DNA of 64,000 nucleotides from Candidatus Omnitrophota bacterium (lineage in GTDB: Bacteria > Omnitrophota > Gorgyraeia > JABMRG01): assembly GCA_042577545.1 (NCBI GenBank), contig JBHPDT010000001.1:15453-79452 (forward strand), given 5' to 3'. The stretch's first letter is position 1, and the number at the start of each line of letters is the position of its first letter. The translations under genes and the position numbers were made by a program. This document shows, piece by piece, positions 59,994 to 62,411 of the stretch. Below the pieces are notes generated by a model. The model worked only from the letters and a program-made list of their open reading frames with translations, had not been told where the DNA came from and made no database searches.

Positions 59994-62411
59994 ATGTCAA
60001 TAATTTACAATATTATATTTATACTATTCGGGATATTCTATATACCCATATCTCTTTTAAAGAACAAGAAGAGAGAAGGCATCCCGCTACGCTTTGGTCT
60101 CTATTCCAAAGAGCTCATCGACAAGCTTTCAGAGAAGAAGAATATATGGATTCATGCGGTTAGTGTGGGTGAGGTCATGGCAATCTCCTCACTGGTATTG
60201 AAACTGAGAGAAGAGTATCCTAGCCACAGATTAGTGATAACAACTGTGACAGAAACAGGCAATAGTGTAGCGAAAAAATTGATAAAGAAGGATGAGGTCG
60301 TTCTTTATCTTCCTTTTGATCTTAGTTTTGTTGTAAACAAGGTATTTTCTTATATTAAGCCCCACCTTCTTATTATTACTGAGACAGAGCTATGGCCAAA
60401 CCTGATTAGGATATCAGGGCTATTAAGAGTTCCGACTATGCTTGTAAATGGAAGGATCTCTGAGAACTCATTTAAGAGATACAAGCATGTAAGGCTGTTG
60501 ATGAGAAGGTTCTTAAATAAGATAGACCTCTTTCTCATGCAATCTGAAGCTGATAAGGAAAGGATACTCTATCTTGGCGCCAGTGAGTCAAAGGTGACTA
60601 TCTCTGGTAACTTAAAGTTTGACTCAGCCAATTTGTCCGATATCTCTGATGCGAGTCAAAAGGAGCTAAAGAGACTTTTAAATATAGAAGAGGACGAAAA
60701 GCTTCTTATAGCGGGTAGTACCCATCCTGGCGAGGAAGAGATGGTCTTATCCGCGTTCGATAATCTGCGAGAGAGATATCCTAAATTAAAACTTCTTATT
60801 GGACCGCGCCATGTTGAACGCGCCCCAGATATCGAAAAACTGATAAAAGACCACGGCCTTAATTCCGTAAGGATATCAGATGCTACAAACGAATCGGTTA
60901 TCGGTTCTCGGTGTGCGGTGTCCGGCTCGCATCTTGACGAAAACCGAAAACCGAAAACCGAAAACCGAAACCTTAGTATAACGGTATTCATTCTCGACAC
61001 CATCGGCCAGTTGAAGCAATTTTATTCCATTGCGGATATTGTCTTTATCGGTGGCAGCCTTATTAAAAGGGGTGGCCAAAATATCTTAGAGCCCGCCGCT
61101 CTTTCAAAGGCTATAATATTTGGCCCTTATATGTTTAATTTTCGCGATATTATAGAAATTTTTAAAGCGGATGAAGCCGCTATCGAGATACCTGACTCCA
61201 AATCTTTAGGTGGTGAGATCGCGAGGCTTTTGGATGATCCGTCTCTTCGCAAGAGATTGGGTGATAGAGCCAGATCTATAGTGCAGGAGAACAGGGGCGG
61301 CGTAGATAAGACTCAAGCGGCAGTAAAAGAAATTTTTAGTATTTATCCAAAAGAGTCTATAAGTAAAGAAGATTATAATTTTAGATTCTTCTTTTCTGAT
61401 ATGCTCACTTCTGGTGTGAGCAACATCTTCCAATTTATCTTAGTGGTCCCGCTTTGGCTACTGTCAGTTCTCTATGGGTTTATAGTAAAACTGCGCTTGT
61501 TTCTTTATAAGGCAGGGGTATTTAAGGTTCATAAATTGAAGGCCGATGTGATCAGTGTAGGTAATATTACATGGGGAGGCACAGGCAAGACCCCCCTTGT
61601 TGAGGCTCTTTGCGGGAGACTAAAGTCCCAAGGAAGAGATGTAGCTCTTTTAACACGGGGATATGGAGGCGATGAAGATAGGGCATTGCAAGATAATCTT
61701 TCTGATATTCCAGTCATTGCTGGAAAGAATAGGCTGAAAAATGCTTTATTGGCTCAATCTGAAGGGAAGATAGATCTCTTTATTCTGGATGATGGCTTTG
61801 GACATCTTCGCATAGATAGAAGAGTAGAGATCTTAACAATAAATGCTACAAACCCCTTTGGCCCTAAACGGCTTTTGCCTGCCGGGATGCTTCGAGAGCC
61901 TATTAAGAATATATCAAGAGCGGATATTATAATCTTAACAAAGACAGATCTTGTATCAGGCAGTAAGCTAGAGAGTGTAAAGGATACAATTAAGGGAGTC
62001 GATCCCTCCATAGATATATTTGAGTCAACGCATGAGCCTCTTGTATTTGTAGATAGCAACTCTAAAGAGAGAGAGCTTGAATATATTAGAGAAAAGAATA
62101 TTTGCACTATATCAGGGTTGGGTGACAACAGCTCATTTGTTGATACTCTTAAGATGATAGGTTCAAAGGTTAGTTTAAGTTATTTTTTTATCGATCATCA
62201 TAAGTATACGCGAGATCAGCTTAATAAGATTATCAAAAAGTGTGAGGATAGCAAGATCAGGACTATCGTTATTACAGATAAGGATTGGGTTAAGATAAGG
62301 GATCTAAAGATCTCGTTTTCGAATATAGAGGTGTTAGTTTTAAAGATAGGGATAAAGATAGAAAATGAAGAAATATTCATTAGGAGATTACTCTCTATAT
62401 TACCTGGCTAG
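59994..62411 (+). CDS. waaA: Fusion: Kdo transferase WaaA (KdtA) + tetraacyldisaccharide 4'-kinase LpxK
   Basis: aa 1-~450 are WaaA (IWIHAVSVGE, GPRHVERAPD, GGSLIKRGGQNILEP). aa ~470-805 are LpxK (TM, then P-loop VGNITWGGTGKTP, RGYGG, DDGFGH). Confidence 0.85.
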   Translation: MSIIYNIIFILFGIFYIPISLLKNKKREGIPLRFGLYSKELIDKLSEKKNIWIHAVSVGEVMAISSLVLKLREEYPSHRLVITTVTETGNSVAKKLIKKDEVVLYLPFDLSFVVNKVFSYIKPHLLIITETELWPNLIRISGLLRVPTMLVNGRISENSFKRYKHVRLLMRRFLNKIDLFLMQSEADKERILYLGASESKVTISGNLKFDSANLSDISDASQKELKRLLNIEEDEKLLIAGSTHPGEEEMVLSAFDNLRERYPKLKLLIGPRHVERAPDIEKLIKDHGLNSVRISDATNESVIGSRCAVSGSHLDENRKPKTENRNLSITVFILDTIGQLKQFYSIADIVFIGGSLIKRGGQNILEPAALSKAIIFGPYMFNFRDIIEIFKADEAAIEIPDSKSLGGEIARLLDDPSLRKRLGDRARSIVQENRGGVDKTQAAVKEIFSIYPKESISKEDYNFRFFFSDMLTSGVSNIFQFILVVPLWLLSVLYGFIVKLRLFLYKAGVFKVHKLKADVISVGNITWGGTGKTPLVEALCGRLKSQGRDVALLTRGYGGDEDRALQDNLSDIPVIAGKNRLKNALLAQSEGKIDLFILDDGFGHLRIDRRVEILTINATNPFGPKRLLPAGMLREPIKNISRADIIILTKTDLVSGSKLESVKDTIKGVDPSIDIFESTHEPLVFVDSNSKERELEYIREKNICTISGLGDNSSFVDTLKMIGSKVSLSYFFIDHHKYTRDQLNKIIKKCEDSKIRTIVITDKDWVKIRDLKISFSNIEVLVLKIGIKIENEEIFIRRLLSILPG
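60893..60972. repeat. Complete CGGTTNN-word palindromic element inside the waaA reading frame
   Basis: Left arm atcggttatcggttctcggtgtgcggtgtccgg, centre ctcgcatcttga, right arm cgaaaac x4 + cgaaacc. Positions 60894-60912 are identical to the intergenic copy at 51544-51562. Translated as ESVIGSRCAVSGSHLDENRKPKTENRN. Confidence 0.9.

Follow-up and report, generated by a model that had tools for sequence, protein, structure and literature searches.

A heptamer-periodic palindromic repeat translated in frame within the WaaA-LpxK gene of an Omnitrophota-like bacterium

Palindromic repeats within protein-coding genes are best known from Rickettsia. The Rickettsia palindromic elements (RPEs) are short repeats found between genes as well as inside them, the genic copies being in frame, translated and compatible with the protein fold; they are about 150 bp long, occur only in Rickettsia and have a conserved peptide per family (PMC10969869). 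Here we analysed an imperfect palindrome at positions 60893-60972 of a 64-kb stretch of contig JBHPDT010000001.1 (the whole stretch is called the window below), which lies inside the open reading frame (ORF) of a fusion of WaaA and LpxK, both of lipopolysaccharide (LPS) biosynthesis. We show that this segment is a bona fide copy of the CGGTT/AACCG repeat family of the window, and that it is read in frame within a permissive disordered loop of WaaA with the enzyme motifs intact. It resembles the genic RPEs in that the ORF is maintained and the surface loop between strands that holds it is compatible with the fold. It is set apart from them by its description, with a length of ~80 nt, 7-nt periodic arms, variable spacers, no conserved peptide and an Omnitrophota-like host, and its loop carries arrays with different units in many related lineages. 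The initial annotation had called the element RPE-like, which holds for its behaviour (in frame, fold-compatible) and fails for family membership (length, host, peptide). The finding extends in-frame palindromic repeats to a free-living or episymbiotic candidate phylum, with an element whose heptamer-periodic arms make it structurally different from those of Rickettsia.

Several other described systems share some of these features. Super-families of repetitive extragenic palindromes (REPs) are sorted by a GTAG/CGTC head tag (PMC3733652). [quoted passage not shown] The waaA element has no GTAG/CGTC head, however, but starts with ATCGGTT and ends with CGAAACC, and its arms are periodic arrays of 33-35 nt. 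Neither terminal inverted repeats nor a target-site duplication of the REP/REPIN or MITE kind were recognised, and no Y1 transposase was found in the window. To our knowledge, tandem-heptamer arms have not been reported in REPs or MITEs.

Heptanucleotide repeats of the unit TAACTGA occur in Beggiatoaceae, Cyanobacteria and Bacteroidetes, in 2-6 copies that abound in intergenic DNA near start codons and are occasionally found in ORFs, with one dominant unit, 169 direct sets and one indirect set (PMC4679880). The window likewise has 7-nt units in short arrays that are abundant in intergenic regions, but its arrays belong to many unit families and are paired with their complement into hairpins, and homologous coding loops are occupied across lineages. 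The STRR sequences of cyanobacteria are also heptanucleotide tandem repeats. In Nostoc, small dispersed repeats are said, in work by Elhai from 2008, to be small hairpins inserted into heptamer arrays.

In Borg elements, fast-evolving and independently arising tandem repeats in ORFs encode new intrinsically disordered segments, as far as the accessible text of that study goes (PMC9879509). To the same extent the WaaA case is alike, since here too in-ORF tandem repeats encode disordered segments. Genic repeat units of Borgs are multiples of 3, whereas the unit here is 7 or 8 nt and indels between close relatives are 42 nt. With units of 7 or 8 nt all three frames are read in turn, and only length changes divisible by 3 keep the frame. 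In Haemophilus, simple sequence repeats (SSRs) drive phase variation of LPS genes (PMC2651432). The waaA tract shares with such contingency loci a repeat unit that is not a multiple of 3 and a place inside an LPS biosynthesis gene, but no off alleles or length polymorphism were seen, the copy number is low, and arrays are also found in TopA and NifS. For Omnitrophota, the literature searched contained nothing on heptamer or palindromic repeats, including palindromes with heptamer periodicity, or on array sites fixed in coding sequence.

The host gene, the parts of the element and the neighbouring motifs are as follows.

59994..62411, + strand: intact WaaA-LpxK host ORF of 805 aa (ORF list)
60804..60821, + strand: PRHVER codons (aa 271-276), conserved motif 5' of the loop; P271, R272, H273 and R276 are invariant in alignment A1 of WaaA orthologues
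60893..60925, + strand: left arm, degenerate heptamers ATCGGTT ATCGGTT CTCGGTG TGCGGTG TCCGG with CGGTT core (Tandem Repeats Finder, TRF, and periodicity scan)
60894..60971, + strand: codons 301-326, the translated insert and only long segment with a predicted local distance difference test (pLDDT) score below 50 (AlphaFold2)
60926..60937, + strand: central unpaired hairpin loop CTCGCATCTTGA (RNA fold and inverted-repeat arms)
60938..60972, + strand: right arm, perfect (CGAAAAC) x4.7 with AACCG core, encoding ENRKPKTENRN (TRF)
60993..61013, + strand: LDTIGQL codons (aa 334-340), conserved motif 3' of the loop; D335, G338 and L340 are invariant in A1

The segment 60893-60972 has the sequence ATCGGTTATCGGTTCTCGGTGTGCGGTGTCCGGCTCGCATCTTGACGAAAACCGAAAACCGAAAACCGAAAACCGAAACC and consists of (TCGGTTN)~4.5, a 12-nt loop and (CGAAAAC)4.7, in order ATCGGTTATCGGTTCTCGGTGTGCGGTGTCCGG-CTCGCATCTTGA-CGAAAACCGAAAACCGAAAACCGAAAACCGAAACC. 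TRF reported period 7 for the left arm at 60893-60912 and, for the right arm at 60938-60970, period 7 with 4.7 copies and 100% matches, in agreement with the perfect heptamer tract described initially; having no T, the right arm is stop-free in all three frames. Between 60884-60924 and 60938-60978, arms that leave a gap of 13 nt, the complementarity is 76% over 41 nt, and the predicted RNA fold reaches -34.5 kcal/mol (z = -3.2; 1 of 200 shuffles folds as well), with a stem of 4-6 bp blocks whose separating mismatches keep the heptamer register: ((((((.((((((.(((((...((((. The first base of the element is the third of codon 300, and its reading is ...NE SVIGSRCAVSGSHLDENRKPKTENRN LSITVFILDTIGQ, so that the peptide encoded in the WaaA-LpxK frame is ...NESVIGSRCAVSGSHLDENRKPKTENRNLSITVFILDTIGQ and the WaaA stretch at the insert is SVIGSRCAVSGSHLDENRKPK. 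The initial annotation had described an 80-nt element with both arms in the waaA frame, and its sequence, its coordinates and the ORF were confirmed; since 80 is not a multiple of 3, the length actually inserted cannot be exactly 80 nt, a small correction to that description. A promoter and terminator scan around the element returned nothing associated with it.

The relatedness of this segment to the intergenic repeats rests on several comparisons, for which the following members of the family were used.

1651..1728, + strand: intergenic member, simple CGGTT/AACCG palindrome, 76% identical to the waaA copy
46317..46411, + strand: intergenic member with a central double GC hairpin (CCGCCAAAGGCGG, CCCGCCTCCGGCGGG), 90% identical to 51540-51650 (family D7)
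46920..46996, + strand: intergenic member (I1), simple palindrome with 78% complementarity over 76 nt and 74% identity to the waaA copy
47001..47060, + strand: intergenic member whose left arm is short and whose AACCG arm is long
51540..51630, + strand: intergenic member holding the 19-nt exact match to the waaA left arm
59849..59990, + strand: two family members filling the xerC-waaA spacer, directly 5' of the waaA start codon

The core pattern CGGTTNNCGGTTNNCGGT with at most 1 mismatch had 30 matches in the window against 0.01 expected, and two of them lie within the waaA element, at 60895-60919 (+) and 60943-60967 (-). The waaA copy is organised like the rest of the family, with 4-5 CGGTTNN units on the left, 4-5 NNAACCG units on the right and a short loop between these arms; it can be aligned over its whole extent with seven intergenic copies (alignment A2), is 74-76% identical over its full length to the simple copies 1651-1728 and 46920-46996, as expected from its initial assignment to the same family as the intergenic copies, and its heptamer-register hairpin blocks are also present in the intergenic copies. 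The 19-nt identity between 60894-60912 in the left arm and 51544-51562 in an intergenic copy was reproduced (19 of 19); by our own arithmetic such a match is expected by chance about 5e-7 times in 64 kb. Members of the family lie as a rule between co-directional genes. The waaA copy and a tract in NifS depart from this rule, both being inside ORFs, and all remaining copies in the window are in spacers; the waaA location is the exception that makes the finding and no ground for excluding the copy from the CGGTT/AACCG family.

Heptamer periodicity is a property of the whole window, which has a GC content of 39.7% and all its long ORFs on the + strand. A self-match of at least 17/21 was found in 191 sliding windows at period 7, in none at periods 5, 6, 8 and 9, and in 11 at period 10. 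The arrays occur as inverted pairs that form hairpins, in almost every spacer between co-directional genes (for example 1645-1750, 8393-8592, 22673-22951, 44447-44643, 48077-48276, 52774-52956 and 54589-54810), and belong to at least 6 unit families, including CGGTTNN/NNAACCG, CTGGTTA/AGAAACC, CGAGATA, TAAGAAT/ATACTTA and AAATTCA/AATTTTT. Copies that are 90% and 85% identical adjoin non-paralogous genes, and their similarity ends at the edges of the element. This shows dispersal by some copying process and supports the earlier suggestion that the family is or was mobile. Segmental duplication was considered as a source of the similar copies and rejected, as the flanking genes are not paralogous. 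At its gathering thresholds, Rfam matched nothing in the whole window.

The gene that carries the copy is intact in its frame and in its invariant WaaA residues. In one ORF it joins a WaaA part (aa ~1-445) to an LpxK part (aa ~470-805), with Pfam matches to PF04413 (1.6e-60), PF00534 (7.3e-10) and PF02606 (1.1e-68). The WaaA part has the make-up of a Kdo (3-deoxy-D-manno-octulosonic acid) transferase of family GT30, with Glycos_transf_N followed by a C-terminal GT-B domain, and keeps the SxGE, ETExWPN, PRH and GGS motifs. All invariant columns of A1 are kept in the query, including S57/G59/E60, E130-N136, P271-H273 and G353/S355/N363/E366. The element falls between PRHVER (aa 271-276) and LDTIGQL...GGSL, which spans aa 334-356 downstream of it; the initial placement between PRHxER and the GGS region was therefore correct, and so was the statement that the reading frame continues normally.

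The insert was evident from the spacing of the two motifs. From PRH to LDxxG the query has 63 aa, against a mode of 41 among 115 homologues (Omnitrophota), which leaves ~22 aa extra; 41 aa is also the modal spacing in loci mostly from other phyla. In A1 the extra residues fall between R-I-S and F-I-L-D, and none of the orthologues has a homologous insert peptide. Against Aquifex aeolicus WaaA (2XCI) the query has 33 residues in place of 3, with the break at 291/325 of the query and 252/256 of the chain. An AlphaFold2 model built on A1 had a mean pLDDT of 87.3 and 2XCI chains as top Foldseek matches (best E = 4e-21), and its pLDDT was below 50 only at residues 301-326 and 356-360. A strand (290-293) and a helix (294-298) precede the insert in the model and a strand (330-333) follows it. 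As modelled, the insert leaves the connection between two beta-strands in the C-terminal Rossmann domain as a disordered stretch, which fits a tolerated peptide, and it would be a sequence-unconstrained surface-loop peptide that leaves the fold undisturbed. The 2XCI gap and the model agree with the variable surface segment that the initial annotation had proposed, and the long spacing, the intact gene and the disordered loop agree with its view that a peptide insertion is tolerated. Neither of two findings that would speak against such an insertion, a homologous peptide in orthologues or a broken gene, was made, since no orthologue has such a peptide and the frame and the invariant residues are intact.

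The same loop is a repeat site in many relatives. About 16% of the 115 homologues have a PRH-to-LDxxG spacing of more than 50 aa, with unrelated peptides, and these long loops are scattered over a neighbour-joining tree for which the loop was masked, often beside short-loop sisters. In the loops from the closest metagenomic relatives, strong periodicity (a self-match of at least 17/21 at period 7 or 8) was found in 22 of 71 related loci and in 1 of 53 loci mostly from other phyla, and in none of the same-length control segments 300 nt upstream. The long loops of L084, L085 and L123 are period-8 hairpins with z from -2.9 to -4.5 (L084 -3.6, L123 -4.5), those of L001 (z = -5.2), L002 and L104 have direct heptamer or octamer flanks around GC hairpins, and that of L122 has a double GC hairpin almost identical to the centres of the window copies 46317-46411 and 51540-51630. 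Loops of normal length are often perfect one-arm arrays whose units are specific to the lineage, such as (CGTCCAT)x5 in L097, (CCGCTAT)x4 in L108 and (AACGAAAC)x4 in L088. When loop arrays were compared with other arrays of their own locus, 6 of 26 pairs had 9-mers in common, against 15 of 1052 between-locus pairs (~16x), from which it follows that the array units are genome-specific families. Between the waaA insert and its own flanks, 12-mers were shared only in L084 and L104, and L094 had a single short match.

Two sets of relatives bear on how such a loop changes. The nucleotide sequences of L166, L165 and L164 are 90-92% identical, and what separates these loci is a nested pair of 42-nt modules, both in frame. 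One module is the small hairpin TTTGGCT-TCCTAT-AGCCAAA, the other the small hairpin TGCGGCT-TCCGAT-AGCCGCA, so that palindromic modules are seen directly as present or absent in the waaA loop, a sign of recent gain or loss. Apart from the window, only L098 has a CGGTT/AACCG hairpin. It lies just upstream of waaA, and in the waaA loop of this locus the position of the query's right arm is taken by a one-arm array of the AACCG type. Related lineages thus show the waaA loop to be a long-standing repeat site, with in-frame gain, loss and homogenisation of arrays and small hairpin modules, and the window copy is not a one-off hit on a virgin loop, as arrays or hairpin modules occupy it in many related lineages. 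Repeat DNA has rewritten this loop of an essential LPS enzyme time and again in many related lineages, and other conserved proteins have similar fixed sites.

In the window, the second such site is in the cysteine desulfurase gene NifS/IscS (ORF 8592..9818, + strand).

9129..9169, + strand: second in-frame tract of the family, one-arm (ACCGCAA) x4.3 in the NifS/IscS gene, encoding ITANRKPQTANR (TRF, 100% matches)

Compared with 9wep, the best solved homologue, this tract inserts ~15 aa opposite an alignment gap, and it forms no hairpin (z = -0.04). Across 83 related loci scanned, we counted 29 arrays in ORFs other than waaA (the two window arrays excluded), the array-bearing flanking ORFs being from loci L084-L163 and L001-L003. 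They recur at fixed sites: after EYWEIEAEL in TopA (eight loci), after RGYK and after TEKDA in LpxK, and at two sites in LpxL-Elm1. The units are lineage-specific, and at one site they are sometimes related across lineages, such as TTACGAG, TTACGGG and ATACGCA at the first LpxK site, which suggests that long-lived arrays evolve in concert. In the window itself, the corresponding sites of TopA and LpxK have no array.

We consider it probable that a family copy was imported into the WaaA loop and persists there as a tolerated peptide. Transposition or templated conversion would have supplied repeat DNA from another place in the genome, and the target would already have held a resident one-arm heptamer array of the AACCG type. 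This resident array would be what is now the right arm, (CGAAAAC)4.7 just before VFILD, and the left arm and the loop would be the gain from another genomic copy; the perfection of the right arm may point to recent homogenisation. The mRNA would carry a hairpin of roughly -34 kcal/mol that ribosomes must unwind, and the copy would persist as a neutral or slightly costly passenger because selection at the loop demands only an open frame. Nothing in the analysis spoke for a function of the hairpin or of the peptide in this copy. About one third of the frames of CGGTT copies in plus orientation are stop-free, so that an open insertion is not improbable once copying occurs. Since arrays and hairpin modules occupy the loop in many lineages, the copy may be an extension or conversion of a resident array and not a simple transposition.

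Several observations weigh against the import of a copy. The best waaA relative has 58% aa identity, too distant to place the insertion boundaries, the polarity (gain or loss) or the age of the insert: the protein search found Omnitrophota WaaA proteins of at most 55-58% identity as the nearest, a scan of genome contigs gave 44% as the best among the matches listed, and a scan of metagenome contigs with the insert-containing segment gave 52% at best, no close relative in either case. The loop of the waaA hairpin is not significantly similar to the loops of other copies (155 of 1000 shuffles score as high), so the loops are not demonstrably homologous and relatedness rests on the periodic arms. 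A transposase was not found in the 64-kb window, and no target-site duplication was evident in the flanks inspected, where a flanking direct repeat is not distinguishable from the repeat unit itself and the whole element is an inverted repeat. Finally, perfect arrays at fixed coding sites over deep divergence seem hard to square with pure neutrality, and their persistence hints at an active maintaining process or at selection.

The alternative that survives best, though we regard it as unlikely, is a purely local origin, in which the resident loop array grew by slippage, the complementary arm arose by fold-back or template switching, and the likeness to the intergenic copies reflects a genome-wide homogenising bias with no element imported. 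Most related waaA loops, even those of normal length, are indeed one-arm heptamer or octamer arrays; the right arm of the query sits at the exact position of these arrays, just before VFILD; the first repeat unit of L084-type loops, GTTAGCCA, falls on the native V-S-Q-L codons; and the hairpin loop is not significantly similar to those of other copies. The left arm argues against it. Its 19-nt identity to 51544-51562 includes spacer bases, whereas by our own comparison of the arm sequences only 17 of the 19 positions match the complement of its own right arm, which speaks against a simple fold-back, and its unit is present at eight other sites of the window. Moreover, the ~16-fold within-locus sharing of units requires exchange between sites.

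An improbable explanation is a contingency locus, in which the heptamer tract is a slippage switch that frameshifts waaA-lpxK and makes LPS phase-variable. The tract is perfect over 4.7 copies, 7 is not a multiple of 3, array sites recur in lipid A/core genes (waaA, LpxK with two, LpxL-Elm1 with two), the position of the array is kept while the unit changes, as in known contingency loci, and SSR-driven LPS phase variation is well known in Haemophilus (PMC2651432). However, fixed array sites are also present in the housekeeping genes of TopA and NifS/IscS, all waaA alleles with a loop located by the motif scan read through in frame, the 42-nt indels between close relatives preserve the frame, and 4-5 units are a low copy number. 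For 7 metagenome loci without the loop motif, a crude pattern check returned no cross-frame PRH-LDxxG pair, which says nothing either way.

About as improbable, in our view, is a functional mRNA structure, a hairpin selected to pause ribosomes, to protect or process the waaA-lpxK transcript, or to bind a factor. The hairpin is stable (z = -3.2), the waaA loops of L001, L084 and L123 hold hairpin-type inserts with the z values given above, the homologous inserts of L001 and L002 differ by paired stem changes (GGCCGCAC/GTGCGGCC vs GCTCGCAC/GTGCGAGC), and intergenic copies fill the spacers of co-directional genes. Against this, most lineages have a one-arm array or an unstructured segment at the site, with a mean z of -0.19 for short loops and z < -2 in only 29% of the long ones; the NifS tract has no hairpin, Rfam matches nothing in the window, and there is no terminator-like feature.

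An assembly chimera or a decaying gene, for which it can be said that repeats may mislead assemblers and that there is no independent copy of the genome to compare, is hardly credible and was rejected, because the ORF is open through the segment over 805 aa, every invariant WaaA residue is present, both flanks continue the WaaA alignment in the same frame, and analogous in-frame inserts occur in many independent assemblies.

Beyond the import of the waaA copy, it is possible, although we put this forward only tentatively, that Omnitrophota have an undescribed repeat system, in which 7/8-nt arrays and their hairpin forms make up dispersed, concertedly evolving families in spacers and at fixed loop sites (WaaA, LpxK, LpxL-Elm1, TopA and NifS), with units rewritten in each lineage. 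The ground for this reading is that perfect short arrays have stayed at fixed coding positions over deep divergence. Such a system would imply array-targeted copying or conversion, or selection for arrays (e.g. as frame-switching tracts or as RNA/DNA structural signals), and not ordinary MITE insertion and decay. If an active mechanism were at work, it would be a new bacterial route to disordered protein segments and could represent a new class of small mobile or converting DNA. In practice, the arrays will lead gene callers astray and distort alignments and phylogenies that involve Omnitrophota proteins.

As for a mobilising enzyme, L001 has a gene for a 296-aa Y1_Tnp protein (PF01797) at 4389-5279, directly downstream of its insert-bearing waaA, and this is a candidate. 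No homologue of it was found in the window: tblastn with the L001 protein against the window, which is only 64 kb of the genome, gave no match better than E = 1.

Several observations concern the neighbourhood of waaA. WaaA and LpxK are fused in the window, while the top-listed homologues have a separate WaaA of roughly 380-460 aa, and L002 and L003 have lpxK as a gene of its own further downstream. The window (56833-62411), L001-L003 and L164-L166 share the gene order topA, xerC/D-like recombinase, waaA; in L165 and L166 only the recombinase-waaA part of this order was seen with annotation. In L164, lpxK is called as two ORFs separated by an in-frame TGA at ~3237-3240, beyond which conserved LpxK sequence carries on without a change of frame; recoding, a sequencing error or a pseudogene could each account for this. 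In L095 (1543-1581) and L105 (5719-5751), the LpxK array is the reverse complement of the waaA-loop array of the same locus (CGTCC / GGACG), and the two arrays could pair over ~1 kb in a polycistronic RNA.

Other observations concern the repeats themselves. Double GC hairpins (CCGCCAAAGGCGG + CCCGCCTCCGGCGGG) are nested centrally in some CGGTT palindromes of the window (46348-46378 and 51567-51597), and near-identical or analogous double hairpins are found in the waaA loop elsewhere (L122 4160-4243, L001 3880-4005 and L002 3778-3897), which suggests a second layer of tiny elements landing inside heptamer arrays. The Shine-Dalgarno-like sequence TAGAACAAGGA(G) is a shared motif that follows CGGTT copies, shortly 5' of the next start codon (46412-46425, 47060-47072 and 51634-51646), and the CGGTT repeat unit may thus extend into the ribosome-binding region. 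At 44449-44634, a 93-nt palindromic element of the TAAGAAT/ATACTTA family is present as a tandem duplicate, with the two copies 94% identical.

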